Part shown: piece by piece, positions 378 through 22,674 of the stretch | Numbering within the stretch: the stretch's first letter is position 1 | How the letters are laid out: each line of letters starts with the position of its first letter | DNA from: a bacterium | GTDB lineage: Bacteria; SAR324; NAC60-12 | Assembly (NCBI GenBank): GCA_965233585.1 | Contig: CBDDTI010000476.1 | Coordinates: 1 to 22,674, forward strand | Direction: 5' to 3' | DNA: 22,674 bases | Program-made: the position numbers and the translations under genes | The notes under the pieces: generated by a model | Told to the model about the DNA's origin: nothing | The model's database searches: none | Seen by the model: the letters and a program-made list of their open reading frames with translations, nothing else

Positions 378-380
378 AAT

Positions 381-2337: not shown

Positions 2338-2339
2338 TT

Positions 2340-2714: not shown

Positions 2715-2762
2715 TTTGACAGTTGCAATTTTTTATTTTTCTTAAATAGATATGAAAATCCT

Positions 2763-3102
2763 TTAAACGGTAACGTAAGCTTTCATCAGTCCCTCGTACG
2801 GAAAAATGTTGCTTCGAATTCTGACTTTATCGTCTTGTTGTTGATGGAAATCTAGAAGGAGATATCCGTGACTTCGACCGTTAACAGCTTCCCTGTATGC
2901 TTTATTTAAAATTCCGACTCGTCCGGGGAAAATTTGTTTAGCCAAATGCGCAACCGCACTTCTGTCCCGAGGATTGTTAAAAAGAACCATATACTGTGTG
3001 TTTATGCTTAATGTCCGCAAATCGCCTTTTTTATCAAATAAATTTTGACACAGAAAAACGGTGAAACAATTGTAGTGATGAGTCAAAACCGTAAAAAAAA
3101 TG
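2763..3102 (-). pseudogene. 3' fragment of A32/FtsK-like packaging ATPase, copy A, truncated by the retroelement
   Basis: Translation matches the C-terminal ~110 aa of the copy B ATPase; Walker A/B part missing beyond 3102. Confidence 0.92.
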
Positions 3103-3278
3103 TCTTTGCTTTGTTATATCTGTATTGTACTTTAGAGGCCTTTAATCATACACTTTTATAAGTTCTTCCATTTTAGACTGCCTTTCATTTCATGAATCAC
3201 TGGGTGTGGTTTCTATCTCAAAACTGAGTGGGGAATCTGTTGATTCCGGACTCACGCAACCTTTCATGCAATCTCACA
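3103..3278 (-). repeat. 3' LTR (176 bp; TGTGAG...CAAAGA on minus strand)
   Basis: Identical by eye to 8516-8691; preceded by the PPT. Confidence 0.95.
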
Positions 3279-3287
3279 CCTCCCCCC
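3279..3287 (-). other. Polypurine tract GGGGGGAGG
   Basis: Purine run directly abutting the TG start of the 3' LTR. Confidence 0.88.
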
Positions 3288-3491
3288 AGTTTATAGCATC
3301 ATACCATTTAATGATGGTGTAAACTAAAGGGCCTGGATCCGGATTCAGAATGGGGTGCAGCATCGCGAGTATGTACATAACGTTAAAATACTTAATCGAA
3401 ATATGAAAGGAGGCACATAATACGTGAAGATAAAAGATAAGCGGAATATGAGAAACTGACGGTACGCGAATGGTTGGGTACGATTAAAATG

Positions 3492-3941
3492 TTAATGCTC
3501 AGTGGACTTCGGCTTCTTGGTAGGTCTTTTGGAGCTTCCTTCCTCGTGATCGTCTTCGATTTCTGCAATCCTGGATCGCTGGTGGAACGAGCGTTGGATT
3601 CGTTGATCGAGGGGTTCATATGTAAGGGCGAGCTGTTGGAACGCCCTGGCGACTGAAGGATCACACATTGGGGGTGGCCAGTGCGGCGATGGAGCGACCG
3701 TGTGGGGCGGCTCCCAGCCGCTGGTTGCCGGTCTGCCGATCTGCTGCTGCCTCCGTTTATCCCCTCGTTTCCGGCGGGCGATGCAGAAGTATAGAATCAG
3801 AGCCCCTAGGACAACCAATCCGAACCCTGCTCCAAGGGTGGGGAAATGGACTTCCAACATGTGGAAGCCTTCGGAGGACTCCATGGACGAGCTTTGGACG
3901 TTGGTGGTGCCCGAATTTGGCTTCGATGATGATCCACCCAT
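3492..3941 (-). CDS. 149-aa predicted myristoylated single-pass membrane protein, FAST-fusogen-like architecture
   Basis: ATG in strong context (ataATGG); MGGSSSK myristoylation consensus; TM LGAGFGLVVLGALILYFCIA; polybasic RRKRGDKRR; Pro-rich PSPHWPPP; occupies the env position. Confidence 0.75.
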   Translation of the reverse strand: MGGSSSKPNSGTTNVQSSSMESSEGFHMLEVHFPTLGAGFGLVVLGALILYFCIARRKRGDKRRQQQIGRPATSGWEPPHTVAPSPHWPPPMCDPSVARAFQQLALTYEPLDQRIQRSFHQRSRIAEIEDDHEEGSSKRPTKKPKSTEH

Positions 3942-4114
3942 TATTGGAGTGTGAGCACGAATGTGTGGAGTTTCCGGAGCAACTGGGTGATAGTCTCAGA
4001 TATCTCCGGATAGAATATGGTAGCTGCCAAGCACAGTGCTCCGATGATGCTGAGGATCAGTAAGAAGTCGATGACTTTGCACATCGCCGGGTTGACTGTG
4101 ACTGGCACTAACAT
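3941..4114 (-). CDS. 57-aa small hydrophobic membrane ORF (absent from the ORF track)
   Basis: MLVPVTVNPAMCKVIDFLLILSIIGALCLAATIFYPEISETITQLLRKLHTFVLTLQ*; ATG 3 nt after the pol stop; its TAA overlaps the next ATG (TAATG). Confidence 0.62.
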   Translation of the reverse strand: MLVPVTVNPAMCKVIDFLLILSIIGALCLAATIFYPEISETITQLLRKLHTFVLTLQ

Positions 4115-4117
4115 TGA

Positions 4118-7100: not shown

Positions 7101-8446
7101 CAGATTTTTCTGACCGTGACTCTCTTGGCTTCCTCACCGAGCTCCTCCTCGGATTCATATTCAGGCGGCGGCACGTCCTCCATGTCCGACGCCTCCGTGA
7201 CGACAGCGCGGGCACGAGCCTGATCGTTGTTGCCTTGGCGCCCCGCCCGCTGCTTGGCTCGCTCTTTCTGACACGTCCGTTTCAGGTGTCCCACCGTCTG
7301 GCAACCGTGACAGGATGCCGTCTTGTGTTGGCAATCCTTGGCTTCATGGCTTTCACTCCCGCACCGTGTGCACCGGCCCTGCTCCCTCAACTCTTGCAGG
7401 GACGGTATGGGTCGTTTTCGTGGTTGCGGAGCGTTAGCCTGTTTTTTCTTGACGAACCTCGCAGCGGCAGATGGCTGGTCTATGGTTTTCACTGAGCTGG
7501 CCGCAACCTCATATTGATGTGCAATCTTGTCCAAGATCTCCATGGTGGGTGATTCTTCCTTGAGAAACCGCTCCCGTAGCTTCATGTCCACGGTGCCCGT
7601 GATGTACCGCATGACGTAAATGCCATCGGTGGACAGCTCCGATAGGGCGGCCTCATCGCCCAGCGCTTTCACCTTGGACGACCAGTCGCTGAAGGACTGT
7701 CCAGTTGTCTGCATAGACTCGAAAAACTCCACCCTCCTGGCAAGCAGGGGGTACTTCACAAGGAATTCCTCCTCCAAGAGACCCATGCAGGACACTTGCG
7801 TGTCAGATCCGAACACCGGCGTTGTCTCCTGGATCTTGGTTGACAGCTTCATCTCGAGGTGGATGTCGATAACCATTCGGAAATACGCCTGCTGTTCTTG
7901 GACCGACGCTGCCTCCATGTTAGAGCTCGTGAACCACGCCTTGAATTTCTTGCACCACGACTTCATTTCCACCGTATTGTGGTCTCGAGACAAGACGTGG
8001 GGCTCCAAAGCCTTGTTCGGTTTGACCCTGTCGGGCTTGGTCGCGGTCGTTGCCGGAGACGTGCCAGGCCTCTGTGACGGGCGTTCCTGGCCGGCCTCAA
8101 GCGCCCTGAGGATCCTGTTGACGGCCGCGTCCGCTCGGTCGGCCTCTGCATTCAACTCTACCTCCCTGTCGGCGTAATGCTCCTCATCCGCCGCCATGAG
8201 CTGCAAGTATTTCTCCTCTAGGGCCTCCATCTGCGAACGAATTTTCCCCAGCAGCTCTGCCAGGACCTCCATGACATGAGATGACGGCCTGCTGCCTGCC
8301 TCGTCTATTGCTTTAGTAGCTGAATTGATACGTCTCGTCAGGTGGCCTTTCATTGCCCGAATGGCATCCTTCATTGCCTTTATCTCACGGACAGGGACCC
8401 GAGGACCGAGACCGGCCTCATCAGAGGTGCCTTCGCTGTCCGACAT
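4118..8446 (-). CDS. gag-pol: Gag-Pol polyprotein (1442 aa)
   Basis: Two CCHC knuckles (CTRCGSESHEAKDC, CHGCQTVGHLKRTC), protease ADTGS, RT (LDAVQGYHQ, PMGL, IVDD), RNase H (TDAS, ELEA, TDH), integrase HHCC plus D,D(35)E (VDIF, TDNGPAF, NGDAE). Confidence 0.97.
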   Translation of the reverse strand: MSDSEGTSDEAGLGPRVPVREIKAMKDAIRAMKGHLTRRINSATKAIDEAGSRPSSHVMEVLAELLGKIRSQMEALEEKYLQLMAADEEHYADREVELNAEADRADAAVNRILRALEAGQERPSQRPGTSPATTATKPDRVKPNKALEPHVLSRDHNTVEMKSWCKKFKAWFTSSNMEAASVQEQQAYFRMVIDIHLEMKLSTKIQETTPVFGSDTQVSCMGLLEEEFLVKYPLLARRVEFFESMQTTGQSFSDWSSKVKALGDEAALSELSTDGIYVMRYITGTVDMKLRERFLKEESPTMEILDKIAHQYEVAASSVKTIDQPSAAARFVKKKQANAPQPRKRPIPSLQELREQGRCTRCGSESHEAKDCQHKTASCHGCQTVGHLKRTCQKERAKQRAGRQGNNDQARARAVVTEASDMEDVPPPEYESEEELGEEAKRVTVRKICDQSATPRVKVIINGKFPFNACADTGSSRTIISLDLAQKFGLPMYRAKERLYAANNEGMRCEGRSPIKVAFDGKVTPIMALITSSMTREMLIAERDLKEMEVLPRSFPSARINKTAAIDVDDHMERLRGRLIDEFEGTFGEGLTDNPMAGKPMDITLKAGAIPRKCLTARSVPLHWQDPAATAIDTLLKSKVITKEEGPTDWIAPAFFVPKGDPKVKEALKKGMVVVTVKDLRLVVDYTGLNQHVKRPVHPFPSTKDILQQLPPDGRVFATLDAVQGYHQIALSESASKLTTFLLPSGKFRFLRAPMGLNASSDEWCCRSDKVIEGLEGVQKIVDDVLVSAPDIITLEARIRAVLTNCKKNNVIVSLKKFRISESVKFAGHIISAQGVMPDPGRLKAIADFKAPTCVKELRSFLGLANQLANFRPDLSHMTMNLRHLLKQGVNFLWLPEHEEEFARVKDLLTSPSVVKLFDRSKQTELLTDASKKQGLGFALTQKDEAGRRFLIQCGSRSLTSAEENWSTVELEAKAVEYAILKCRHYLLGHPGFTVVTDHRPLVTLLSKPLDEAMNARILRMRERLANFTFNVTWQAGKIHDIADALSRAPVFAARNQEDGISIQAVGVEDPGLTKLLEAADEDEGYQHQLAAINQNVSINDLPAEHPAASLQSLWDRLSTMDGKLIVLDGTKVLVPRKARRGLLQDGHKSHCGAEKMKTLFRQLYHWPGMANEIDNFVKACEACQYHLPSLPKQQLQPTVATYPLQQVGVDIFDSGGKHFLCVMDRFSGFPFAAPLRSMTAKAVIDQLHKIFMNFGFARTIRTDNGPAFRSEFDDYCARHGMIHETSSPHYPQSNGDAECGVKICKHLLQKCGEDWRLFEASLLEWRNVPRPGGLSPAQLMFGRAQRTCIPRLAVAHDPIDMARARNDREKRDRDMKKSFDRNAFIQPDLVEGDNVLCQDMLSHKWNRRGIIHECLPYKRSYVVKFSDGSTLRRNRRFLRKL

Positions 8447-8497
8447 CTTTCGTCAGCTGATCTCCACAAACTGAACTGCGGCCCCTGACACAGGTTC

Positions 8498-8515
8498 ACT
8501 GCCGCAACTGCGCCA
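8498..8515 (-). other. Primer-binding site TGGCGCAGTTGCGGCAGT, probably tRNA-Ser
   Basis: TGG immediately follows the 5' LTR; TGGCGCAGT is complementary to the ...ACTGCG-CCA 3' end found in some animal tRNA-Ser; tRNA identity inferred. Confidence 0.75.
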
Positions 8516-8691
8516 TCTTTGCTTTGTTATATCTGTATTGTACTTTAGAGGCCTTTAATCATACACTTTTATAAGTTCTTCCATTTTAGACTGCCTTTCA
8601 TTTCATGAATCACTGGGTGTGGTTTCTATCTCAAAACTGAGTGGGGAATCTGTTGATTCCGGACTCACGCAACCTTTCATGCAATCTCACA
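8516..8691 (-). repeat. 5' LTR (176 bp) with TATAAAA at 8573-8567
   Basis: Identical to 3103-3278; followed by the PBS and the gag ATG at 8446. Confidence 0.95.
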
Positions 8692-9524
8692 ATTGTCTCA
8701 ATATTGGTTTGCCGCACTTGATAATATCTGACCTTTTTTACATTATGGTAAAAATAATGACCCTCCATTTGCTTAGGTAAAGTTGTTGTAAACATAATTG
8801 TGGAATAATTATCACTGTTAGGAACGTCGGAAATAATATTTGATTTTACGTGAACCAAACCGGGTTTTAAAACGGAATACACTTTATTTGCTATGGTTTG
8901 AAACCTAAAATTTTTTTGTAACGGATAATACACATATTCGTTGTCAAATACCTTAATTGTTTTTTCTCCAGAAAATAACACTCCGTCTTTATAACATCTT
9001 AACTTTATAATTTTTATTAAATGTTGATGAATTAGTAAGTATCTATTATAATTGTAATTTTCATTTTCCGACTCATTTTCAGTTTCTTTTTTAGGACCTT
9101 CTTCAATTATGTAGACTCTTTTATTTTCACCGTCTGATTTGACGTCACCACTAGTCAATTTCATTCCTTCCTTGTAAATATATTGCATCAAGTGCTGCAT
9201 TAATCTATATATTGTCAGATCCTCTTCATCTAAATCGGGCAAAACCCAAACGGATTTTGTCTGGTCTAAAATCTCGGTCTTTATCTCCTCTTCTGAAGAA
9301 TTTATAGATGTTAATTCGTTTTTTAGCATTATGACACCGGTTTGACCTTTTGTCATGGTTAATTGGTTGTAATTATAATGTAACCCCATAGATACTATTC
9401 CAATTTCCCATTCTCTATTTTTCAAATCTAAATTTTGCGGAAATAAATTGGTAAAGGAATTTAAAGTATTTTTGACGTCCGTATTGGAACCAGCGTTTGA
9501 CACGCAATAAATGTTATAATCCAT
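8692..9524 (-). pseudogene. Minor capsid (penton-like) protein, C-terminally truncated by the LTR
   Basis: N-terminus YNIYCVSN....KNTLNSFTNLFPQNLDL..EWEIGIVSM typical of Polinton minor capsids; after VRQTNIETI the ORF reads into LTR sequence. Confidence 0.8.
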
Positions 9525-9530
9525 TCCGCG

Positions 9531-10613
9531 TTATTGTGACACATCAACTACATCTTTTTCATATGTCCAACTAGGGTTTTTATACCCTTTCCATTTCACC
9601 AAAACCATTTTTTTGCCTGTTTTTTTATCTTTTTTTGTTCGTAAAATCTTTTCAATCACAAATAATTCCGGCTCATTCACGGGAGTAAGTTCACTCTCGT
9701 AAAAATTCCCTTCCAGAGTTTCATCCTGTTCTAAAGTTTCTAATTCATAAGTAGGTTTAGGCAAACGAGTAAAAATTGATTTTATTTTAAAAATTTCTTC
9801 CTTAAATTGTGGTGTAAAACCTCTGTCAAATTTTTCCTTCATTATGCTAATGCGCACGGTTTGACCAATTTTGTATTTCGGTCTTTTTCTTTTAAACTTT
9901 GAATAATGCAATTCCTGTTTTCTTCTAATGAGATAGGTCCGACCAGGGAGCTCGGCTTCAGCGGGTGACATCCCAATCATGCGATGTTTACGATTGTTGT
10001 AGGTATGAACAAGAAAGGGCAACGCATCGATGTACCTATCTGTATTTTCGTGAGTCATGTATTTAAACATCAGATTTTTTAAAGTTCGGTTAAATCTTTC
10101 CACAAAGGGGGCGTGCACAAAATTGTTGCTGTGTAATAGAAGAATGTTATTGTTTTTGCAGTAGGCTTGAAACAATTTATTCTTAATTTCTGCGCCCTTA
10201 TCAGCTAAAATTCTACGTGGAAACTTTTTTGCTCTTTTCATAATAGACTCAAATCCCTCCATAAAAGTTTTTGCTGTTTTATTTTTTAAGGGTTCTACAA
10301 ACGCGAATCGTGTAAAAATATCGATGGCTGTTAAAAGGTATCTATTTCCGTCATTTTCTTCGATCAAATTTCCTAAATCTATAAGATCAATTTGAAATTG
10401 ATATCTCTTATGATAAGCAAATGTCGGATTTCTAGGTTTAGGTAATTTTGGTTGTTTATGAAGTGTGTAAGAATCAGTTCCCTTTAACCATTCTTCAATT
10501 GTCGTCAAAGGAATTTTTTTTCCATAATAATAATAAATCAACGCAGGAGATGCAAAAGCTATTGGTGAGCCTGGTCTTGCATATTCTTTTAAAAAAATCT
10601 CTTTTGTTGTCAT
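9531..10613 (-). CDS. Maverick rve integrase with C-terminal chromodomain
   Basis: FQIDLID, IDIFTRFA, ADKGAE, VERFNRTLK, YNNRKH..IGMSP; chromodomain FVIEKIL...LVKWKGYKNPSW. Confidence 0.96.
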   Translation of the reverse strand: MTTKEIFLKEYARPGSPIAFASPALIYYYYGKKIPLTTIEEWLKGTDSYTLHKQPKLPKPRNPTFAYHKRYQFQIDLIDLGNLIEENDGNRYLLTAIDIFTRFAFVEPLKNKTAKTFMEGFESIMKRAKKFPRRILADKGAEIKNKLFQAYCKNNNILLLHSNNFVHAPFVERFNRTLKNLMFKYMTHENTDRYIDALPFLVHTYNNRKHRMIGMSPAEAELPGRTYLIRRKQELHYSKFKRKRPKYKIGQTVRISIMKEKFDRGFTPQFKEEIFKIKSIFTRLPKPTYELETLEQDETLEGNFYESELTPVNEPELFVIEKILRTKKDKKTGKKMVLVKWKGYKNPSWTYEKDVVDVSQ

Positions 10614-10619
10614 TTCTTT

Positions 10620-11021
10620 TTAAAACAGGGGTTGTTTAGTTATTCTCCGTCTTTTTTTCCTAGATTTAGCAATTGACGGGGTTTTCCTCTTTCTGCTCAA
10701 ATTTTGAGCCCGATATTCGTTGTCGGTATCTGCTTGTCTAGCAGCGTTAAGCAAAATACCGCGAGTAGCGGATTTTAAACGTTGTTTAGCTTTTCTGCCG
10801 ACCGGTTGACCCTCCAAAGCTTCTAATGCTGTTTCTACCACCGCCTTTGTCGCCTCTTTTTTTAAAGCTTTACCTGCGGATCTTATCGGCGCGCTTCTAG
10901 CCACTTTTCCAATAGTTTTTACCGCTGATCTTGCTACCGGCATTAAACCGCGAAAGATTCCGGAAAAAAGTGATCCGATTCCCGAGCCTCGTTGCCAACG
11001 TAAGCCGCTGTGGTAATTCAT
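10620..11021 (-). CDS. Basic core/precursor-like Maverick protein (133 aa)
   Basis: QRGSGIGSLFSGIFRGLMP N-terminal motif, Ala/Lys/Arg-rich body, basic tail. Confidence 0.75.
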   Translation of the reverse strand: MNYHSGLRWQRGSGIGSLFSGIFRGLMPVARSAVKTIGKVARSAPIRSAGKALKKEATKAVVETALEALEGQPVGRKAKQRLKSATRGILLNAARQADTDNEYRAQNLSRKRKTPSIAKSRKKRRRITKQPLF

Positions 11022-11029
11022 ATATTTTA

Positions 11030-11776
11030 TTAATGCTTTAGACTTTTAAGACATCTGTATAAAGACATAACACTAACGCCTAAAATACGAGCCGTATTTT
11101 TGACGCTCGGATATAGTGTTCTTGTTTCTTTTAAAAAGGCATAAGCACATGCTGCTAATAAAGTCCTAGGAGCAAAAGAACTATTTTCATTTTTATTCAG
11201 TTTTTCTTTTATAGTTGTCATCTCTTGATAATTTAACTGTAGAGGCTGTAAAAAATATTCTGCCATATCTTTTGCTTTTATAGAATTTTCTGTTTTAATT
11301 GTGTTGGTCGAATCTTGTCTGTATAATTTTATCCATCGCCATACCGTTTTTGGATTAATGCCAACTTCCTGACACAAATGACTTATTGGACGGGGAATTT
11401 TTTCCTCTATTAAACTTTGATACAATACCATAGCAATTAAGCCTTTCGGATTAATTTTAATTTTTCCATTTTTTTGATAATGCCACGCTGCTATTTCTGA
11501 CCACAAATTAAAAATAGTGTTTGTGACATCATTATTTAAATGTAATTTATTACATAAATTTTTTAAAATATTTTTTTCTTTCTTCAAATGTTCGCTGTTT
11601 TGTTCAAATTCTTCATTTAAATTTTTTATTTTTTCCCATTTTATTTCTAAATTTGGTTCACAATATATTTTATCAATAACTAAACCACACTCAGTACACA
11701 CTACGTCTCCTTGTCTGGTGTCTTCTATTATATATTGATGAATGCACATTTTAATCCAATCTAATTTTTTGAACAT
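11030..11776 (-). CDS. TFIIB-like transcription initiation factor (start at 11776 or 11749)
   Basis: Zn ribbon CIH...EDTRQGDVVCTECGLV; two cyclin-like repeats (LCNKLHL...MVLYQSLIEEKIPRPISHLC; PRTLLAACAY...ARILGVSVMSL). Confidence 0.88.
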   Translation of the reverse strand: MFKKLDWIKMCIHQYIIEDTRQGDVVCTECGLVIDKIYCEPNLEIKWEKIKNLNEEFEQNSEHLKKEKNILKNLCNKLHLNNDVTNTIFNLWSEIAAWHYQKNGKIKINPKGLIAMVLYQSLIEEKIPRPISHLCQEVGINPKTVWRWIKLYRQDSTNTIKTENSIKAKDMAEYFLQPLQLNYQEMTTIKEKLNKNENSSFAPRTLLAACAYAFLKETRTLYPSVKNTARILGVSVMSLYRCLKSLKH

Positions 11777-11856
11777 AATTCCATTGTTTATTGAATGAAG
11801 TTCAAAATTTGACTGAATTTACAAATAAACCAACGTAATCTTTTATTATATTGAAT

Positions 11857-12399
11857 TTATTCGGTTTTATATTTTTTCAGCAATTCATAAATAATTTTTA
11901 TTCCTTGTTTAGCGTCTTCTTCGCTGGAAGCTCCAATTATTACTATTTTTCCAGACGAAAATATTAAAGCAGAACACTTCTTTAATGTTAAAAACATTCC
12001 AGGAAATTTCTCAGAGTCGTATCTCTTTTGGATAATCCCAAAATCTACATTTAATTTCAAATTGTTGTAAAATGTTAATAAATTGATTCTTGATGACATT
12101 TGACACAAACAAGTCATGTTTTCTATTTTAAACTTTTCAGTAATAAATTTACTACTTATAACAAGTTTTAATTCGTCTAATGCTTTTGGTATATGCTCTG
12201 TGGAAGGGATTTTAGTGATATTTACGTGGAAATTTCGACTCTGTTTTGTTTTGGTAAACACAATAAAAGAATATTTTTTTTTAACAACAGTAAAATTATT
12301 ATAATGTTTTATTACATTATCGGTATTAAAAGAAATTTTGTCGCTGTCGATGAGACGAATTTTGCAACTGATTTTAACATTGCTGACCATCACTTCCAT
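11857..12399 (-). CDS. TATA-binding-protein-like factor (~180 aa from ATG 12399)
   Basis: Two TBP repeats: VSNVKISC / IENMTCLC, RYDSEKFPGMFL, ALIFSSGKIVIIGA. Confidence 0.88.
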   Translation of the reverse strand: MEVMVSNVKISCKIRLIDSDKISFNTDNVIKHYNNFTVVKKKYSFIVFTKTKQSRNFHVNITKIPSTEHIPKALDELKLVISSKFITEKFKIENMTCLCQMSSRINLLTFYNNLKLNVDFGIIQKRYDSEKFPGMFLTLKKCSALIFSSGKIVIIGASSEEDAKQGIKIIYELLKKYKTE

Positions 12400-12406
12400 C
12401 TTTGGT

Positions 12407-13756
12407 ATGGGCTTGCCCGATAAAAGCGGAATTGCTGGATTGGCCGTGGAACAAAACGATGGCACAGAAAGTGGTTTAGCGCTTCACGCACCCTTAGAAG
12501 TAGAAACGGGTCTATTGGAAGGGGCTCACGTTATTTACAATAGCGTGGCTTCTATCACTAACACTGGACCGGTAGAATTTCTTGTTCCTCGCGACAACGA
12601 GTGTTCTTTTATACTGAGTCAAACCAGACTTAGTGGACATTTTGTAGTGACAAATGATGACGGCGGCTTTGTCACGGACGCAAGTAAAACTGCGTTGGTA
12701 AATCATTTTGCTGCTTGTTTATTTAGTCAAGTGGAAGTATATTTGAACGGTGTTCAAGTAGCTGATTTGAGTTCGGCGGTCACCTACCCCTGGAGAATGT
12801 TTTTACAATCATATTTAAGTTACAATATTGACGTAAAAGACACTTATCTGGCTGCTGAAGGATATTATCCTGAAAATGAAGACGAAGTTACTGCTACCAA
12901 AATTACTGAAGACGTTTCCTCTCATTCTTTAAAAAAAAGAAAAAAGTTAATTTTAAACGGAAAAAAAGTATTTTTCAACTCGCGTATAGCCGTTGATCTG
13001 TTTGACACTGATCGATTTTTACCTCCAAATGTGGATATCAAGATAAAATTGGTTAGATCGGCTGAAACATTTGGTTTGCTTCAAGATCCTGCAGCAGCAA
13101 AACCTTTCAAAATTGTGTTGAAAGATGTCAAATTGCATATGAGAAAAGTGTTGCCCACGTTGATAATACGAGAAAGTTTCAAAAACAAACTTTTAAAAGA
13201 ACCGTGCTACCTACCTTTCAGCTCTACACGTTTAAGACATTACGTTATTCCTCAAGGCGTGTCGTCTTTTAACATCGCTAATATTGCTAATGGAACATTA
13301 CCCAAACAAGTGTTTTTTGTGATGGTTCACAATCAGGCTATGTCGCATGCTCCCGACAAAAATCCTTTTAATTTTCAACACTTTAATCTTTCCTCATTTA
13401 ATTTAAAAAAGAACGGGCAATGCGTATTTCCCAAACCTTTTCAACCTAACATAGGAGAGGGGGACGTTGTTGACTTGTATCGGCATTTATACGACAGTAT
13501 AGGTATTTCGCACGGCAATCAGTCCATTGGCTTGACGTATGATGCTTTTATAAATGGAAGATTTTTTCTGGCGGCCGACTTGACACCGGATCAATGTAAT
13601 TCGTACCACACACATCCGGAAAATTATGGAAATTTAGATTTAGAGTTGGCTTTTTCCCAAATCACTCCTCATCCAATATACGTTCTAGCCTTATCTATTT
13701 TTAACTCCGGTATTAAAATAGATCAATTTCAACAAGTCATGAAAGGAACCAATTAA
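12407..13756 (+). CDS. Maverick major capsid protein (double jelly-roll)
   Basis: GPVEFLVP, VNHFAACLFSQVEVYLNG, RFLPPNVDIKIKL, KNPFNFQHF, GNLDLELAF motifs; ~450 aa; likely start ATG 12407. Confidence 0.92.
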   Translation: MGLPDKSGIAGLAVEQNDGTESGLALHAPLEVETGLLEGAHVIYNSVASITNTGPVEFLVPRDNECSFILSQTRLSGHFVVTNDDGGFVTDASKTALVNHFAACLFSQVEVYLNGVQVADLSSAVTYPWRMFLQSYLSYNIDVKDTYLAAEGYYPENEDEVTATKITEDVSSHSLKKRKKLILNGKKVFFNSRIAVDLFDTDRFLPPNVDIKIKLVRSAETFGLLQDPAAAKPFKIVLKDVKLHMRKVLPTLIIRESFKNKLLKEPCYLPFSSTRLRHYVIPQGVSSFNIANIANGTLPKQVFFVMVHNQAMSHAPDKNPFNFQHFNLSSFNLKKNGQCVFPKPFQPNIGEGDVVDLYRHLYDSIGISHGNQSIGLTYDAFINGRFFLAADLTPDQCNSYHTHPENYGNLDLELAFSQITPHPIYVLALSIFNSGIKIDQFQQVMKGTN

Positions 13757-13759
13757 AAT

Positions 13760-14242
13760 ATGGAGGGCGGGTTATCAAATATCTTTTTAAACAATTACAT
13801 TCGACCCAGATGTAAGAATTTCATCGGGGTATTTTCGGTCGACGACTTGCCATCTGATCCGTTCACATTGCCTTGCTGTCTGATCGCTAACTTATCCAAA
13901 AGAAATCAAGAAGGATCTCATTTCGTAGCAATGTACATTAACAAAAAAAATCAACTCTATTATTTTGATTCTTTCGGTTTTTTACCACCGATATGGAATA
14001 AATGCCTGATGAAGTTTTTACGACCCTGGATAGAGAAGAATTCCTTCAAAATTATCTTATCTCACCCAATTCAGAGTTTCCGTTCTTTGTTTTGCGGATG
14101 GTACACGTGCGCATTTTGTTTATCTGTGGGCAACAATTTAATGACCCCTCAACAATTCGTTAAAATATTTGTAAAAAATCCCAAATCAGAAAATGATAAA
14201 ATTGTAACTCATTTTATAAAAAAAATTGAAAATAAATGTTGA
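13760..14242 (+). CDS. Adenain-like cysteine protease, copy B
   Basis: His (GSHF), Asp (YFDSFG), Gln/Cys (IQS..SLFCGWY); AATAAA at 14231. Confidence 0.94.
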   Translation: MEGGLSNIFLNNYIRPRCKNFIGVFSVDDLPSDPFTLPCCLIANLSKRNQEGSHFVAMYINKKNQLYYFDSFGFLPPIWNKCLMKFLRPWIEKNSFKIILSHPIQSFRSLFCGWYTCAFCLSVGNNLMTPQQFVKIFVKNPKSENDKIVTHFIKKIENKC

Positions 14243-14254
14243 TATATTTTACTT

Positions 14255-15715
14255 TCATAACTTTGGATATTTTCCTGAAAAAAGTTTTTTAACAGAATCT
14301 GCTTTAGCTTCTGATTTAGACATTTTTCTTGTTTTTGATCTGGTTTTTGCGGGAGACATACCAGCTTCAATAGGGTCCCTTTTTGTTGGGCTTCTAGATT
14401 GAAACATTTTCATTGATTTTGATCTGGTTTTGGTTTGTGCAGGAGTCATGTTAGCATCAGCGGAATTTCTTTTTGTTGCGCCCTTCGACTGGGCTTTTCC
14501 AGCTGAAAATCGTATTTTAACAGGTGTGAGTGGAAATGAAGGAGAAGAGCTTCCAATTCCTCTTAATCTTCTTTTTCGAGGGGTAGAGGTCATTCCAAAA
14601 ATTTTATTCTGATCTCTTACAGACAATTCTTTATAATGATCTTTCATCATGTGTTTGGCAAATTGTGGAATGCCGACATATTGCTTCCCGCAATTGGGAA
14701 AGGGACAAACTATTTTGCCAGCCGCATTCTTTTCTTTCACTGCTTTCGCAATAGGTGTATTTCGCCATTTTAACACAACGGGAGATTTTATTGCGGAAAG
14801 TGCGTATGAGTAATCCATTTCGTTTGAGCTGTTTGTTCTAGCGTAAGGACTGGAAATCATTCCTTTAATGGTCTTTTTGTCTTTCAAAGCTATATCTTTA
14901 GGATGATCTTTTAGCAAATGTTTGCCTAATTGTCCTTCGTCAACATATTGCTTCCAACAATCAGGAACTGGACAAACTAATTTGCCTCTTGAATTTCTTT
15001 TCGTCATCGCTTCTAAAACAGGTGTTTCTCGCCATTCTTCCCGTTGGGTACCAACAGGAGTTGAATAAGCTGATTCGTTCGGACTTTTTGTTTTTTCAGG
15101 ACTAAGAGATTTTTCTGCAACAGATTGTCTTTCAATAATGGGGGTACTAGGTAAATTATTTTCTTCTTGTTGGGGAATTTCAGTGGGTGTTCTGTAAAGA
15201 GATACGTCCGTGAGATCCATATTGGTATCAATTCGAGCAGGTGTTAGTGCATTTGGTATTTCTTCTCGTTGCGTAATTTGGGTGGATGGAGATCTTGAAA
15301 CAGGGTGGTAAGCGCGGTCAATACTGCTACCTTTTTGGGTAACTCGACCAGGTGACATTACATTCTGTATTTCTTCTCGTTGAGGGATTTGAGTGGATGG
15401 TGATCTTGAAAGAGATTGGTAAGTACGACCCATGCTATCAGATTGGGCGATTGATGTGACATTCGGTAATTTATCAGACCCAAAACGAAGTAATTTATCT
15501 CCAGTTTGGATTATTTTCTGTCTGTCTTGTAGATTTTTAAATTTAATGGCATTTTCAATATAGTTGGTTGTTTCCGGTTTTTCATTCATAGAAATAAGTT
15601 CCTTTTTTGATTCATCGTCTTCCGTATTTTTTATTAATGAATAATATAATCTTTTAGGTACTAAAAACATGGAATACATCTCATCATGCGGTTTTATTTT
15701 TATTCCTGAACTCAT
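14255..15715 (-). CDS. 2xC2H2 zinc-finger, S/T-P-rich basic protein (~486 aa), copy B
   Basis: CPVPDC..H..KDH and CPFPNC..H..KDH; ATG 15715 lies one base after the upstream stop; MFLVPK N-terminal motif. Confidence 0.85.
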   Translation of the reverse strand: MSSGIKIKPHDEMYSMFLVPKRLYYSLIKNTEDDESKKELISMNEKPETTNYIENAIKFKNLQDRQKIIQTGDKLLRFGSDKLPNVTSIAQSDSMGRTYQSLSRSPSTQIPQREEIQNVMSPGRVTQKGSSIDRAYHPVSRSPSTQITQREEIPNALTPARIDTNMDLTDVSLYRTPTEIPQQEENNLPSTPIIERQSVAEKSLSPEKTKSPNESAYSTPVGTQREEWRETPVLEAMTKRNSRGKLVCPVPDCWKQYVDEGQLGKHLLKDHPKDIALKDKKTIKGMISSPYARTNSSNEMDYSYALSAIKSPVVLKWRNTPIAKAVKEKNAAGKIVCPFPNCGKQYVGIPQFAKHMMKDHYKELSVRDQNKIFGMTSTPRKRRLRGIGSSSPSFPLTPVKIRFSAGKAQSKGATKRNSADANMTPAQTKTRSKSMKMFQSRSPTKRDPIEAGMSPAKTRSKTRKMSKSEAKADSVKKLFSGKYPKL

Positions 15716-15716
15716 T

Positions 15717-16091
15717 TTAACGACGACGTCGCGAACTCTTATTCGCAATAATTTGAGCCAAAAGAGGGATGACGGTGCTGGCGATCGCTGATAAAACTCC
15801 TAAAATTCCGCCCTTTTGTAATATTTTTCTTTTTTTTGAAATGTCGGAAGAACGACGCGGCGGTGCAGCAAGACGTCTAAATTCTACCAAATGAGCTCTT
15901 ATCTTTTTTTGAAGACGTGTTCGTACTTTGCCATGTATGGGCAAGTCACCGTTCAAAACGTAATGTAATATACGACAAAGTAATTCAACACCGCGATCGT
16001 CCAAATGGCTTAAAAAATTTGCACAATCCTGATGTTTTAATTTTTTTATTACATTAAAAAGCGAACTAGCTTTTCCTAATGTTTTAGACAT
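15717..16091 (-). CDS. Small basic Maverick protein (124 aa), copy B
   Basis: QKGGILGVLSAIASTVIPLLAQII amphipathic tail; intact in both copies. Confidence 0.82.
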   Translation of the reverse strand: MSKTLGKASSLFNVIKKLKHQDCANFLSHLDDRGVELLCRILHYVLNGDLPIHGKVRTRLQKKIRAHLVEFRRLAAPPRRSSDISKKRKILQKGGILGVLSAIASTVIPLLAQIIANKSSRRRR

Positions 16092-16138
16092 TTTGACAAT
16101 TGCAATTTTTTATTTCTCTTAAATAGATATGAAAATCT

Positions 16139-16834
16139 TTAAACAGTAACGTAAGCTTTCATCAGACCCTCGTACGGAAAAATGTTGCTTCGAATTCTGA
16201 CTTTATCGTCTTGTTGTTGATGGAAATCTAAAAGGAGATATCCGTGACTTCGACCGTTAACAGCTTCCCTGTATGCTTTATTTAAAATCCCGACTCGTCC
16301 GGGGAAAATTTGTTTAGCCAAATGTGCAACCGCACTTCTGTCCCGAGGATTGTTAAAAAGGACCATATACTGTGTGTTTATGCTTAATGTCCGCAAATCA
16401 CCTTTTTTATCAAATAGATTTTGACACAGAAAAACGGTGAAACAATTGTAGTGATGAGTCAAAACCGTAAAAAAATGTTTTAATATTTGTCCAACATCGT
16501 CTAAATAATCGTCAAAAACAACTAATTTGGGCATTTTTCTTGGATATGATTCCAAAATATCTTTCAATTCTTCAATCGAATTTGGAATACTTTTAAATTT
16601 ACGAAATGTTGGAAAGCGAGAGTTTGAACGTTTGTCTCGATTCATATCTTCTTCCATGTATTCATAAGCTTTTTGCGGTTCTTTGTAGAACAACAACATT
16701 GTTTCTGGCGGAGTTGCAAAATATTCGTGCCTACCAACCACTAAATGTTTAAGCCACGTTGTTTTTCCACTCGATGTTGGGCCAACAATTAACATGTTGG
16801 AAGGAATACTGAACCTTAAATCAAAACCATCCAT
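16139..16834 (-). CDS. A32/FtsK-like DNA packaging ATPase
   Basis: Walker A IVGPTSSGKT, Walker B VVFDD, LCQNLF, NPRD; likely start MDGFD at 16834. Confidence 0.95.
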   Translation of the reverse strand: MDGFDLRFSIPSNMLIVGPTSSGKTTWLKHLVVGRHEYFATPPETMLLFYKEPQKAYEYMEEDMNRDKRSNSRFPTFRKFKSIPNSIEELKDILESYPRKMPKLVVFDDYLDDVGQILKHFFTVLTHHYNCFTVFLCQNLFDKKGDLRTLSINTQYMVLFNNPRDRSAVAHLAKQIFPGRVGILNKAYREAVNGRSHGYLLLDFHQQQDDKVRIRSNIFPYEGLMKAYVTV

Positions 16835-16898: not shown

Positions 16899-19800
16899 TT
16901 ATTTACAAATATGGCATTTAGACGATTTGTTGTTGACAATAAGACAATTTCCTAGTGATAAAGTGTGATATCCGCAATTCAAAATGTGTCTTTTGGAATC
17001 CATTGCTGATAACGCAATCTTTCTTTGAAAACATGTCCGAATTTTATGATTCTTCGATCTTAAGTTTTTGAAAGATTTGTAAATTAGAACAGTCTGTTTC
17101 AGACATTTTTTGTAATCGTTATAGGACAATTGCTTTTTTATGCTAGATTTTTTTAAACCTTTGCAAATTTTCTTTTCTTCTGTTTTGTTTTTGTCTAAAA
17201 AATCAGTAATTTTCATAGAATAACATTTTGGACGTAAGCCTATAAAGTGAGTAATAGCTGCTCTGCCTTTTAGTTCGTCTTTGAAATAAAAAAGCTGATT
17301 GGCTCTACTGTCATCGAAAAGAGGATGTTGTTTGGGGTACTTTGAAAAATCAAATATGTGCTCCAATTTTTTCATTTCCCTTTCCAAGTTGTTGCATCTT
17401 ACTTTTAAAAGAAAAGAATCCGTGTCTGAGAAACATAAAGACACATTTTCTTTACCAAAATGTTGTTGAATCGTGTCATAATACGATCTGTACATAAACA
17501 ACTTGGACAATTCCAAAATAGAAAATCCAACGGCTAAAGGCTTCTTGAGCTCTATTATTGCTGGCTTCTTGTTGACAGCCACCAAGTTCTCATTGATGAT
17601 TTGAAAACTGTTGATGTGTTGACCAAGACTGGCTTTCCTTAAGCTTTGTTCATCTCCACAAAGGACCACTTCAGAGTAATTTCGAACATTTTCTGAAATG
17701 CAGAATAAGATTTATTTTATAAATAAATATATTGTTTTAAAAGAAAATTGATTATGCGCGCAAACACCTCAGCTAACTAGCCGTCCTATATCACATTTCA
17801 TTTTCCTCTGTAATTAGCAATGTGCTATAATTTACTACAATTTGAGATCATTCCGTTTTTTAAGCCCGACATAAACGGTCATCAAAAATTCTCACAAAAT
17901 AAACACCAAGTCAAAATGGATAAAAAAGACCAGGAAAAGAGCAAGGCTTTTTGGTTAAAAGTGATAAAATCAGGTCAGGAGGAGGCAACTTCAAGTCCGA
18001 CTTCTGGCAGTAGCTTTACTGGGGCTGCGGCTGGGGGAGCATGGTCATCTACTAAAACTGGGGGAGCATGGTCATCTTCTGGGGCTGCGGGTGGAGGAGC
18101 ATGGGCATCTTCCGAGCGTCCCGTGGCTCCTGCTTGGCCATCACGGACCCCGTACAAAGTCCGTCCCACAAAAATCAGGGTCGGAGTCGTGGAAGAGCAC
18201 ATCTACTGTCGGAGCCGGGGGTGGGGGAGCATGCTCATCTACTAAAACTGGGGGAGCATGGTCATCTTCTGGGGCTGGTGTGGGGGGATCATGGGCATCT
18301 TCCGAGCGTCCCGTGGCACCTGCTTGGCCATCACGGACCCCGTACAAGTCCGTCCCACAAAAATCAGGGTCGGAGTCGTGGAAGAGCACATCTACTGCCG
18401 GAGCCGGGGGCGGGGGAGCATGGTCATCTACTAAAACTGGAGGAGCATGGTCATCTTCTGGGGCTGTGGGTGGAGGAGCATGGTCATCTACTAAAACTGA
18501 GGGGGCATGGTCATCTACTAAAACTGCGGGAGCATGGTCATCTTCTGGGGCCTTGGGTGGGGGATCATGGGCATCTTCCGAGCGTCCCGTGGCACCTGCT
18601 TGGCCATCACGGACCCCGTACAAGTCCGTCCCACAAAAATCAGGGTCGGAGTCGTGGAAGAGCACATCTACTGCCGGAGCCGGGGGCGGGGGAGCATGGT
18701 CATCTACTAAAACTGGAGGAGCATGGTCATCTTCTGGGGCTGTGGGCGGAGAAGCATGGTCATCTACTAAAACTGAGGGGGCATGGTCATCTACTAAAAC
18801 TGCGGGAGCATGGTCATCTTCTGGGGCCTTGGGTGGGGGATCATGGGCATCTTCCGAGCGTCCCGTGGCACCTGCTTGGCCATCACGAACCCCGTACAAA
18901 TCCGTCCCACAAAGGTCGGAGCCGGAGTCATGGGATGAGCAGACCTCTCATCGCGTGTCATTTGATTTGTCTTCACAATCGACATCAAAATCTAAACCAC
19001 CACCCTATCGTCACGTGGAACCTTCACCGACGCCAGAAGTGCGTCAAGTAACAGCATTTCCATCGGTGTGGTCTCCGTCTACAGCTCGAAAAGTTACCAA
19101 AAAAAATTAAATTTAAATTTTGATCATTTTTCTTTTTCCTTTTAATTACAAAATAAACTCAACATTTTATAAAAATTGATTTTTCAAAAAGTTTGCGTAC
19201 TTGACTAATTAATTTCGCGAATTCTTAATTTAATATTGATTTAATATTATGAATATTTATGAGATAATTTGCTAATTAATATGTAAAGGTTTGGAGATTC
19301 ATTTTCTAAAATTGACAAAACCATGCGGGAAAATTCAAAACAAATTTTTAGAGAAGGAAGAGGAGAAGGAGAAGGAAAAGGAAAATGGACAAAGGAAAGT
19401 TGGGGAGGATGATGAGGAGGGGGAAATACGAGGTATTAAAGGTAAAATGGACGGAAGAGGAGGAGGAGGAGAGGTTCAAGCTGTTGCCGGACCCACCATC
19501 GAGCGAGGCACCGCCGCGTCCGCCACTGATGGGAGGCGGTGGCCGTCTTAGACGGTTCGCCAGGGGCTTGATCGAGATGATCAGGACGGCCGCCGCCTCC
19601 GTTGCCGGCTCCATCACCGGACGTCCGGACGTCATCCCCGTCGACGTCATCCCCGCCAACGTCATCGGCCCCGCCAACAAAGCCGAGGCCAAAGACGACG
19701 ACGATGACGATTTTGACATCGGCCCCGCCAACGAAGCCGATGATGCCAAAGACGACGATGACGATTTTGATGAGGCTAAGTGTGTGGTTGGTGCCGGCAG

Positions 19801-22674
19801 GACGTACTGCCGCAACTGTCGCCGGTACCACCACGCACTTGTGCCTCAAATTTAAAGAAAATATAAAAAATGACCCCAAATTCATTTGAGTATTTAACAA
19901 ATTCATTTTTTACAGAATTACTATTCGCGCTGCGTCAATTTACGCTTTTGCGTCTTTTACAATTCCAACATCATTAAATTATCTTATCTCAAAACTTACC
20001 AATAAATTTTCCAAAAGTAGAGTTGGCAAAAAGTTTAAAAAGCCGGAGTTCAAAGTCATTGCGAGCATTTGATCGCAGCTTTGTAACCTTTTCGATGAAC
20101 TCCTTCAAAAAAGCTTTTTGTCGAAACTTCATGACTCTTCTTATCTTCAGCAATTTCATGCCCTTTTTCAAGTAGTACTGCAGGTTTTCCAGATGCACCA
20201 CGTACTTTTTTCGGTCATAAAAAGTGCTCAACAATTTCTTGCTCCGGTATCTTTTGTTCCTATAATCTCGAGGGCAGTGATGTTTCAGTAAACGGCGATT
20301 GTAAGGAGATAGATGTTTAAAAGAAACCGTGTCTGTATACGGAGCCAGCGGAAATTGATCGTGCGCCTGAAAATGATATCGTGTAACTTGTCAAAAACAA
20401 TAAATAACGTATCACAACAAAGATCGGATTTACCTGGTGAAGATGGGAAGGATAATGCAAATCAACTTCAAACGCATATCCAGTATCGTCTTGCGAAGGA
20501 ATGTTGATAATATCTTTAGCAGTCCATTTTTTAAATTCAGTTTTTGGAACCCATTGGAAATCAGAAACTGGTAATTTTAAAGTTTCCATACTCCCATATA
20601 AGTTGTTGGCTGAAAAATTGTACGGATCATAACAAAATGATTTTATCAGATAATACAGTATAAAATTACCATCAATGTATAACAAGTGATCGCCGCTTTT
20701 TCTAGGATTGCTATTCCCTTTGGCATAACGCTGAGCGATAAAACTTTGCCCACCTCTGATACCCTTTGTAAAAAAACGCTCCATTTCAGGATCGGAATAG
20801 ACATCTAATGATCCGAGGGGTTTGGAAGTTTCAGATTCAGATGTGAGCTTATTATCTGATTTAGCTTGTTCTGAATTTTGAAAGAACATAAGCATGACAT
20901 CAAAACTCAAGCCAGGAATTCCTAATTTAGGTAGAATGAATTTAGTATTACGATACATCCAACGGTAAAGATTAAAATTTACCTAAATAATAAACAGGAT
21001 CCAATTGAAAATGTTCCATGACCATTTTCCTGTACTGAAGAAATGCTTCACACAGCAAAACAACGTCTAAAGAACAATAGAGCATCATGTAATCCACCAC
21101 ATTCTTGCATTTGAACGATTTAAAGACTTCTTGAGCATGGGAATAATCCGCTTCCGTAATGTGTTCTTCGTTCAATTCGGAATAAAACGAATCTTTAGAC
21201 GGAAGGTTTCGACTTTTCTTCATCTCTTGTAGAGATTGGAAATGTTCGTAACAAAAAACACCTTTTCTTTTTAAAAGTTTTAAAGCTTTTGATTTTTGAC
21301 GAACAGGAATTTTTTTATATCTTTCCATTTGTTGTAAAATGGGAAAGGTAAAATTTGAGGTCTGATTCAAATCTTGAACAAGCGCATCTAGACTGCCAGA
21401 AATGTGCTCTAACGAATCTTGAATTTTAAATTTGCCCAATGTAAGAGTGCGAAACTTTTCACTGTTTTTTGCTAAGACTTTTGGATTTTGCTTAAATTTG
21501 GAAACATTTAACTCTTCCACGATTAAATGCAAATCGTATCTGAAACGCGTACATAATTTGTGTTAGTTTAATAAAATAAACCCATTTAAGATTTCTTACC
21601 CTTGAGCGTTGTGGAAAAAAATTGGTGTGTGAAAGGGACCGGATCTCGTCAAGTTACACAGTGAATGAGCCGCGCCCATTATTTTCCCTGTCACGTGATC
21701 ATGATCCAGAACTTTTCTGTAATTTCTAGAGTACTTTTTGAACTGACCACCACAAATATGACAAACTTTTGCTTTTTGATACATTTGCCATTCTTGCGGA
21801 CTAGATTGATTTTTAACAATATGTCTAAATTTTTGTTTTCTTTCTTCAACAACTATTTCATAGAAGGACATCCGATCCAAAAAATGTTTGGCTGCATCCT
21901 CCCCTACATATTCTTCTTGAAAAAATACTTCATCATTCGAATCCACAAAAAGCAAGCTATACCCCACCGGTCTATGCACGTTTATATCGTCACTGGTGGG
22001 AAAAGCACACAAACACTCGGATTTTTAAACAGAGTCGACATTTAGATCGTTCTTTGTTTCTTTGAAGTACACATTCAAAATCACAAAATCCAACAACAGG
22101 AGCATGAAATTTATGTTTGTGATTGGTAAAACTTATGGAGGAATTTTTGGTTGGGTAGAGAGCACGTTGTTTATCACAGCAAGTGTCTTCGTGTTTTTCT
22201 TTTTTAGATTTGGATCGAAAATGTAGCAGACATTTTTCACAATAGATGCGCTTCTGTTGACCTGCTTTTTTACCCGACAACAGTCCGGCCCGATTATTCA
22301 AAAAACCTTGGATTTTGGTAATTTTAAAGAAATGGTGCTGTTGATTTAAATCCTTAATTTTTTTAAACTTGGAAGAAAAACCCAATTTGACATTAGAACT
22401 ACAATTGACAATCTTTTTACGGGAAGATTTTTTCTTGCGTTGAATTGGTTTTGCAAGGCGGGAATTATATGGACACTCATTTTCAAGAGAGATTTCAGGG
22501 TCGTATTTTATCATAAGCAAATTTAAAATGTTCTTGTTTCTGTTGTTGTTTTTATTAGTAAAAAAACCCAACTTTGAAACTTGACCCTCACTCTCATAAA
22601 AAACTGAAATTGAAATTGGTAAATGGGAGTTTCTATTTAGAAATTTTTTTAAATTACAAAATTGAAGAGGGAAC
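16899..22674 (-). CDS. Protein-primed family B DNA polymerase with endonuclease VII-like insert; spliced exons >22674-21600, 21539-20983, 20921-20670, 20609-20434, 20366-20000, 17692-16899; one +1 frameshift at 22022-22026
   Basis: ExoI CDFE, ExoII HNAQGYD, ExoIII YCSLD, motif A YIDANNLYG, motif B KLFANSTFGKFIENVR, motif C SDTDS; EndoVII-like CHIC...DHDHVTG...HSLCN; several motifs are restored only by splicing; frame stays open to the window end. Confidence 0.93.
17916..19110 (+). CDS. Nested ~397-aa Gly/Ser/Ala/Trp low-complexity repeat protein (one +1 indel at ~18156)
   Basis: aaaATGG start; removing the extra A (tacaaagt versus tacaagt in the next repeat units) joins ORFs 17820-18245 and 18091-19110; AATAAA at 19152. 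Confidence 0.65.
18020..18935 (+). repeat. Hierarchical tandem repeat: units spaced 190(189+1), 276 and 276 bp, built from short GGAGCATGGTCATCT subunits
   Basis: TCCGAGCGTCCCGTGGC anchors at 18111, 18301, 18577 and 18853. Confidence 0.92.
19385..19855 (+). CDS. Nested 156-aa acidic protein with C-terminal C-x8-C-x2-C-x3-H cluster
   Basis: aaaATGG start; GC-rich ORF bounded by AT-rich flanks; duplicated IGPAN..AKDDDDD(D)FD unit. Confidence 0.62.
   Translation: MDKGKLGRMMRRGKYEVLKVKWTEEEEEERFKLLPDPPSSEAPPRPPLMGGGGRLRRFARGLIEMIRTAAASVAGSITGRPDVIPVDVIPANVIGPANKAEAKDDDDDDFDIGPANEADDAKDDDDDFDEAKCVVGAGRTYCRNCRRYHHALVPQI
20367..20433 (-). other. PolB intron (67 bp)
   Basis: CAG|GTAAAT...TTTCAG|GCG restores HLHQAHDQFPLAP. 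Confidence 0.9.
20610..20669 (-). other. PolB intron (60 bp, in-frame, stop-free)
   Basis: G|GTAATT...TTTCAG|CC restores YIDANNLYG. Confidence 0.9.
20922..20982 (-). other. PolB intron (61 bp)
   Basis: TAG|GTAAAT...ATTAG|GA restores DPVYYLGIPGLSFD. Confidence 0.88.
21540..21599 (-). other. PolB intron (60 bp)
   Basis: GG|GTAAGA...TTTCAG|A restores HNAQGYDLHLI. Confidence 0.9.

Follow-up and report, generated by a model that had tools for sequence, protein, structure and literature searches.

The stretch of DNA analysed here, called the window, is the complete contig CBDDTI010000476.1 (22,674 nt; C476 in our numbering), which belongs to a 12-Mb assembly of 747 contigs (GCA_965233585.1), a metagenomic bin labelled bacterial. 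On its minus strand it carries the DNA polymerase B (PolB) gene of a Maverick-like (Polinton-like) element, next to ten further genes of the same element. The stop-to-stop open reading frames (ORFs) between 16899 and 22673 of this strand form a chain of fragments, and the GT..AG intervals which link consecutive fragments without a stop codon were enumerated. Six exons (E1 to E6) and five introns (I1 to I5) were defined in this way:

21600..22674, minus strand: PolB exon 1, incomplete, with the Endonuclease VII/HNH-like domain and the first half of Exo II
21599..21540, minus strand: intron 1, 60 nt, phase 2, GTAAGA..TTTCAG, inside Exo II (HNAQG/YD)
20983..21539, minus strand: PolB exon 2
20982..20922, minus strand: intron 2, 61 nt, phase 1, GTAAAT..ATTAG, at DPVYYL/GIP
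20670..20921, minus strand: PolB exon 3
20669..20610, minus strand: intron 3, 60 nt, phase 1, GTAATT..TTTCAG, inside motif A (YID/ANNLYG)
20434..20609, minus strand: PolB exon 4
20433..20367, minus strand: intron 4, 67 nt, phase 0, GTAAAT..TTTCAG, at HLHQ/AH
20000..20366, minus strand: PolB exon 5, which stops just past motif B and alone matches Pfam DNA_pol_B_2
19999..17693, minus strand: intron 5, 2307 nt, phase 1, GTAAGT..TTTCAG, at FGKFI/ENVR, with AT-rich flanks and a GC-rich core
16899..17692, minus strand: PolB exon 6, with motif C (DTDS) and the thumb, and a TAA stop at 16899..16901 overlapped by AATAAA

An earlier sequence-only reading of the window had proposed five GT-AG segments of 60, 61, 60, 67 and 2307 bp, and these were recovered to the base on the minus strand. 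It had set the limit of the gene at 21600; exon 1 actually extends to the contig end at 22674. Joining of the exons from 22024 to 16902 gave 2568 nt, or 856 codons, without any stop. The claim that removal of the introns restores the reading frame thus holds for the joined sequence, but not for intron 3, which is already in frame and stop-free in the window copy, only through its length. Intron 3 was therefore identified by collinearity and by its length of 59–62 nt in the sister copies. The short introns of the window have a GC content of 23–30%.

The assignment of the gene to the Maverick-type protein-primed PolB, also made in the earlier reading, was borne out by its motifs, by Pfam family PF03175 and by the virus-like gene neighbourhood. 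Exo II and motifs A, B and C align with those of homologues. Exon 5 reached 25.8 bits against PF03175 (E 6e-6), a score equal to the cut-off, and the homologue P0091 reached 71 bits. The Endonuclease VII/HNH-like domain (PF02945, 29.5 bits) lies just before Exo II at 21596..22024 of the minus strand and is present in several homologues too. According to one survey (PMC10748475), such an HNH insertion is taken as the marker of one class of protein-primed PolB, found in nematodes and oomycetes.

Uninterrupted homologues were obtained by searching with exon 6 for longer proteins. Among the 117 relatives recovered, many were single ORFs of 1,200–1,300 aa with 36–41% identity. Comparison of twelve of these uninterrupted proteins with the window by tblastn gave matches which break at the predicted junctions; residues 1025 and 1026 of P0002, for instance, meet across positions 20001 and 17693. 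In a MAFFT alignment of the exon-joined translation (with X at the split codons) and 13 uninterrupted homologues, no gap was present at any of the five junctions, and the junction sites read HNxxG|YD, DPxxY.|.P, YxD|ANNLYG, LH.|.H and GKxI|EN. The placement of the five junctions in conserved motifs, as first described, is confirmed by this gapless alignment. A scan of viral contigs for the DNA of relatives returned none, while a scan of metagenome contigs returned one locus (L021), which is about 39% identical, collinear and free of introns at the I4 and I5 sites.

The conservation of the introns was analysed within the same assembly. Searches with the six exon peptides (tblastn) located 64 PolB loci, of which the 41 copies with at least 59% amino acid identity were retained and sorted as follows, the identities being those to the window copy:

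Family A: 96–100%, 13 copies including the window
Family A': 93%, 2 copies
Family B: 87%, 11 copies
Single copy outside the lettered families: 82%, 1 copy
Family C: 61%, 10 copies
Family D: 60%, 2 copies
Family E: 59%, 2 copies

A GT..AG intron was found at the exact projected base, with no shift at either end, in 187 of the 205 slots offered by the 41 copies, or 187 of the 191 occupied slots. Exact absences account for 12 slots, namely I2 in all ten copies of family C and I4 in both copies of family D, and two of the 205 slots lie beyond the end of a contig. As the same positions and phases, with GT..AG borders, recur 187 times in 41 copies, the pattern is far beyond chance. The comparison of intron positions among related PolB genes that had been suggested earlier hence gave the same positions and phases in five families spanning 59–100% amino acid identity. 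Together with the 76 public proteins described below, the 41 copies rule out that the inserts are unique to this decayed copy.

The joined frame from exon 1 to exon 6 is open in 35 of the 38 complete copies; of the other three, two contain a single stop and the third runs off its contig. Its dN/dS (Nei-Gojobori) was 0.069 between families A and A' and 0.093 between A and B, and pN/pS inside the families was 0.05–0.10. These values indicate that the joined product was under strong purifying selection while the copies diverged. Between A or B and families C, D and E the synonymous sites are saturated (pS 0.85–0.92), with pN of about 0.25; intron positions and phases are unchanged.

The short introns (n = 154) measure 55–96 nt with a median of 61, and their GC content is 0.238 versus 0.369 in the exons. 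Their lengths are multiples of three in 33 cases. The consensus is G|GTAA(A/G)T, a T-rich stretch and TTT(C/T)AG, the individual splice sites being close to it. Between the deep families the sequences of these introns are no more similar than shuffled controls. The short introns behave as neutral spacers. An origin from introners was considered and dropped, as 14 of 16 pairs of introns from different positions of one copy were within about two standard deviations of shuffled controls; similarity was slightly raised in the remaining two pairs (I1 and I4 of C212, I4 and I5 of C593).

In a phylogenetic tree, families A to E form one clade (SH-aLRT 100), which splits into a group with A, A' and B and a group with C, D and E. 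The sister of this clade is the uninterrupted P0002, a 1295-aa ORF. Since members with five introns occur in both subclades, all five introns were present in the ancestor of the clade, and the placement in the tree makes the absence of I2 in family C and of I4 in family D secondary and precise losses.

Another set of copies in the same assembly, family F (C657, C322, C581, C493, C315, C606, C492 and C154; 33–38% amino acid identity), is intronless at the testable positions and groups with other uninterrupted database homologues. It is placed outside the A to E clade, and its copy on C657 is collinear with P0002 over 874 residues. The N-terminal segment of the fused homologue P0002, which includes C2H2 fingers among other parts, corresponds to a separate gene upstream of PolB in the present elements (C212:32069-32833, C193:2945-3600). 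In family A, about 55 nt containing an AATAAA separate the end of this upstream gene from the ATG of PolB. The upstream ORF of family C overlaps PolB at TTTTTTAAAAATG with an offset of -1, an arrangement that might permit frameshifting as well.

To recover relatives from other assemblies, proteins of similar length were searched with exon 6. The result was 75 proteins with 58–94% identity, or 76 with P0001, and none of them is longer than 488 aa. Their ORFs start at the exon boundaries: 44 in E6, 29 in E5 and 3 at the start of E4, and 18 of the 29 starts in E5 lie at most six residues from the I4 junction. Eleven public relatives without intron 5 read ...STFGKFI-E-N(V/A)RNY..., which is exactly the predicted junction of exon 5 and exon 6. 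With these intron-less relatives the joined form is available at the DNA level, as RNA data would show it. By contrast, public proteins from the capsid gene of these elements are complete, each encoded by one ORF, and measure about 445–470 aa whatever their level of identity.

Intron 5 differs strongly in length between the families. It measures 55–74 nt in C, D and E, 945–1351 nt in B and in the copy with 82% identity, and 1583–2322 nt in A and A'. The insert of the window matches only intron 5 of PolB elsewhere, all 21 matching contigs being PolB loci. Copies of the intron are 88–92% identical, which is below the identity of the exons. GC-rich tandem repeats occupy 18031..18913. Two ORFs run antisense to PolB inside the intron:

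19385..19855, plus strand: antisense ORF 1 in intron 5, 156 aa, MDKGKLGR...YHHALVPQI, with a C-terminal Cys/His motif
17916..19110, plus strand: antisense ORF 2 in intron 5, a Gly/Ala/Trp/Ser repeat protein, frame-broken in the window and overlying the tandem repeats

ORF 1 (116–171 aa) is present in ten and ORF 2 (389–396 aa) in eight of 12 family A copies, and an antisense ORF of 197–373 aa is present in intron 5 of nine of the 11 family B copies. The C-terminal Cys/His motif is common to the small ORF of family A, its counterpart in A' and the ORF of family B (pairwise BLASTP, E 1e-14 and about 1e-5). Between A and B, the only alignable DNA of intron 5 is a stretch of about 110 nt directly upstream of the ATG of ORF 1. 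The nested ORFs did not occur elsewhere in the assembly outside intron 5 of PolB, and searches gave no Pfam family at a meaningful score and no usable match in the ESM Atlas. With a pN/pS of 0.55–0.61, they are candidate fast-evolving cargo genes lodged in the intron, as predicted from their sequence.

The ten further genes of the element in the window (8631..16834) are single ORFs from ATG to stop, separated by gaps of a few to a few tens of bases. An alternative genetic code was considered for these back-to-back ORFs and rejected, as each stop precedes the next ATG by a few codons. Those assigned to a position are:

9531..10613, minus strand: retroviral-type (rve) integrase, PF00665, 37.7 bits (cut-off 32.6)
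11030..11776, minus strand: TFIIB-like protein, zinc ribbon PF08271, 31.2 bits, above the cut-off
11857..12399, minus strand: TBP-like protein, PF00352, 69.4 bits, E 2.4e-19
12350..13756, plus strand: major capsid protein, double jelly-roll, 468 aa, predicted model with pLDDT 85.2
14255..15715 and, in the second element copy described below, 876..2228, minus strand: C2H2 zinc-finger gene

The others are a candidate A32-like ATPase (Pox_A32, 18.9 bits, below the cut-off of 22.8), a candidate adenain-like protease (Peptidase_C5, 15.1 bits, likewise below the cut-off of 21.3), a 297-aa protein, a 133-aa basic protein and a 124-aa protein. The integrase also gave a chromodomain match at 24.7 bits, just below the cut-off of 25.1. 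Foldseek searches with the capsid model returned proteins of adomaviruses, giant viruses, an adintovirus and virophages with a probability of 1.0 and E-values down to 9e-28, and the capsid homologue P0197 matches PF21738.

Most copies in the diverged families show a single tblastn match over at least 90% of the length for nine of the ten genes. Only the C2H2 zinc-finger gene departs from this; it is fast-evolving and rich in Ser, Thr and Pro, with few full-length matches in these families. Every family retains the genes for the TBP-like and TFIIB-like proteins as uninterrupted ORFs. Among the top matches of a literature search, none dealt with Polinton together with TBP or TFIIB. The earlier statement that all other genes of the element are intronless was thereby upheld for the ten genes at 8631..16834, the rest of the element of about 22 kb lying outside the window. 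Copies of this unit share homology up to sharp limits at C523:33635 and about 11243-11266.

A second, partial Maverick copy occupies positions 1..3107 of the window and is 96% identical to 13381..16481 in the same orientation. Its ATPase gene is truncated by a Ty3/Gypsy long terminal repeat (LTR) retrotransposon at 3103..8691, which has identical LTRs of 176 nt and one ORF (4118..8452, GC 0.50–0.56) for gag, protease, reverse transcriptase, RNase H and integrase. The flanks of the retrotransposon are non-contiguous parts of Maverick, the ATPase gene on the left and the end at 8695 on the right. This mismatch may reflect either recombination between insertions or an assembly join.

The bin also contains Maverick contigs, tandem histone clusters and pieces of actin-related genes, which must be eukaryotic passengers in a bacterial bin. 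The histone clusters and actin-related pieces lie on contigs C7, C488, C577 and C64 and represent high-copy DNA of some eukaryote. The actin-related pieces have introns of about 0.6–1.9 kb with GTAAGT..TTTAG borders, too few for a comparison with host intron sizes. The window copy itself is decayed, as the earlier reading had it, with a frameshift in exon 1 near 22021 and truncation at the contig end. The frameshift is of one base and is absent from all 13 sister sequences; contigs assembled from the public runs X1 and X5 also lack the extra letter. An additional intron at this change of frame (22020) was rejected in favour of a copy-specific frameshift. As exon 1 runs into the contig end at 22674, the 5' end of the gene is missing. 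In ten of the 11 other family A copies, exon 1 is an open frame of 422 codons, 419 of them from the ATG, and from these lengths about 61 codons are absent from the window.

The PolB gene is very probably split by five ancestral U2-type (GT-AG) introns which would be spliced by the host, most likely constitutively, with intron 5 having expanded later. Splicing of the RNA, its constitutive nature and the expression of the nested ORFs are predicted here from DNA. Transcription of the element would take place in the nucleus, where its TBP-like and TFIIB-like proteins, which fit transcription by nuclear RNA polymerase II, may assist. The major spliceosome of the host would then process the PolB pre-mRNA at five strong sites, and the spliced mRNA would encode a polymerase of about 1,130 aa. 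As the element is copied as DNA, the introns would persist in every copy, drift in sequence and length and sometimes be lost exactly. Intron 5 would originally have had about 55–75 nt and would have swelled to 0.9–2.3 kb in the subclade of A, A' and B by uptake of GC-rich DNA carrying one or two fast-evolving antisense ORFs.

Several observations weigh against this explanation. The contigs from public runs which cover PolB (X1, X5 and X7) contain the introns unspliced, with no intron joint, as DNA does, which says nothing on expression; none of the eight public sequencing runs is recorded as RNA, and X8 yielded no contig on the gene. Owing to the frameshift in exon 1 and the truncation, the window copy is unable to make a polymerase. 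Donors are mutated in four slots, which belong to two visibly decayed copies. An intron of 2.3 kb amid introns of about 60 nt might splice poorly. The tree comes from a quick maximum-likelihood search only, in which the order of C, D and E is unsettled, and families A to E may derive from more than one host genome since the bin is metagenomic. Self-BLAST of C212 and inspection of the C523 boundaries gave no terminal inverted repeats (TIRs). This lack weakens the label of a canonical Maverick, though not of a Maverick-like element, and the true ends may lie elsewhere.

Three other explanations were weighed. That the interruptions are junk insertions of a decaying pseudogene which merely mimic introns could appeal to the damage of the window copy near 22021 and to the repeats held by intron 5. 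It is hardly conceivable given that 41 copies in five families have their interruptions at the same five places, with joined frames open at a dN/dS below 0.1, and that ORF boundaries are identical in 76 proteins of other assemblies. Another possibility is a host gene cluster, domesticated and amplified rather than mobile or viral, whose PolB would have gained introns as host genes do. Strong selection even inside families would suit such a cluster, as would the boundaries of homology of a complete copy, where neither TIRs nor target-site duplications (TSDs) were found. Yet the units of about 22 kb share a full virus-like set (capsid, candidate protease and ATPase, integrase and PolB), occur on different contigs in many copies which are 96–99% identical and have sharp common boundaries, and have graded relatives widespread in other assemblies; domestication of a whole module for capsid and replication in dozens of copies would be unprecedented. 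This origin is thus very improbable.

Regulated splicing deserves more attention. In the P element of Drosophila, the third intron is removed in a germline-specific manner, the product of the retained intron is a defined repressor, and the regulated splice site is weak and bound by somatic factors. The sequence-only reading had proposed that splicing could similarly gate replication of the present element by tissue or stage. In the version weighed here, one or more PolB introns would be removed only in particular tissues, stages or states, and the antisense gene of intron 5 would perhaps take part in the switch. Among the 11 genes of the window only the replicase has introns, a distribution for which the chance of all five falling in PolB is about 0.002 (3402 versus 8061 coding nt, assuming independent insertions). 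Three of the five introns lie inside catalytic motifs, so that retention of any would abolish activity, and the antisense ORFs of intron 5 have a conserved upstream stretch. The donors and acceptors, however, are near the consensus. No read-through frame or length class is conserved, and a truncated regulator as in the P element is not evident; neither a defined retention product nor a weak or regulated site was seen in the 154 short introns. The precise losses, which occurred without loss of the element, imply that no single intron is indispensable. A regulatory role of splicing is therefore considered unlikely. Constitutive splicing is favoured instead, the introns being real, ancient and probably constitutive spliceosomal ones.

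The adenoviruses, which are relatives of the Mavericks in the same virus kingdom, splice the E2B mRNAs for their polymerase and pre-terminal protein. The present gene resembles E2B in that splicing of a nuclear transcript would yield a protein-primed polymerase, the terminal protein being produced separately. It differs in that adenoviruses join a short leader or exon to one long ORF, while the catalytic core is cut five times here. With the P element it shares that a mobile element copied as DNA would need host splicing for its key enzyme, but no weak site or defined retention product is visible here.

Maverick genes are, according to the earlier reading, usually described as mostly intronless, and three publications agree (PMC8097293; bioRxiv 10.1101/2022.07.12.499685; PMC10120064). 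There, the ORFs of intact vertebrate Mavericks are intronless, in agreement with Kapitonov and Jurka 2006 (PMC8097293), core genes of nematode Mavericks are intronless and only cargo has introns (Widen et al., bioRxiv 10.1101/2022.07.12.499685), and endogenous viruses of protists "do not contain introns" (PMC10120064). A literature search, with the two founding papers outside its scope, did not bring up any Maverick PolB reported to have conserved introns. The element described here resembles Maverick/Polinton (polintoviruses and adintovirus-like elements of vertebrates and nematodes) in its protein-primed PolB, rve integrase with chromodomain, capsid, and candidate ATPase and protease, and in its unit of about 22 kb present in many copies. 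Unlike the intronless core genes reported in those publications, its PolB has five conserved introns; it also differs by the separate upstream N-terminal gene, the TBP-like and TFIIB-like genes and the lack of any TIR found. The insert of intron 5 is comparable to the nematode cargo as characterised in the preprint of Widen et al., being high in GC, poorly conserved and endowed with non-core ORFs within an AT-rich conserved element, but it is located in a polymerase intron and on the antisense strand.

Introns are otherwise documented in related types of elements. Polinton-like proviruses of dinoflagellates are populated by introners (PMC11957031), and introns are ordinary in the transposase genes of DNA transposons such as Ginger1 (PMC2836005). 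In common with these, the present gene has spliceosomal-type introns within a virus-like or transposon element. In contrast to introners, which are recent, repetitive and spread over elements, the introns of PolB are ancient and confined to one gene. The surprise for a specialist may hence be moderate; the observation itself is solid.

The finding bears on how such elements are surveyed. Mavericks and Polintons are regarded as compact virus-like elements free of introns. One survey filters for PolB ORFs of at least 900 aa (PMC10748475), and another employed a prokaryotic gene finder (PMC10120064). With PolB split into ORFs of at most 422 codons, such intron-blind rules would overlook a widespread marine clade or mistake it for degraded, and the 76 close relatives among public proteins are without exception fragments.

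A more far-reaching scenario is that the replicase alone would depend on the spliceosome and that one of its introns would serve as a dock for a fast-evolving antisense cargo gene, splicing and antisense transcription together setting replication under the element's own TBP-like and TFIIB-like factors. This is speculative and rather doubtful. If true, it would constitute a built-in switch between latency and activation, of a kind not described for polinton-like viruses. The introns would place transcription and RNA processing of these elements in the nucleus. Within a virus-like genome they document introns kept, lost exactly and enlarged, a rare series that can be dated. They also suggest that an intron has served as a cargo site, and through them one could ask whether a DNA element has its replication controlled by splicing.

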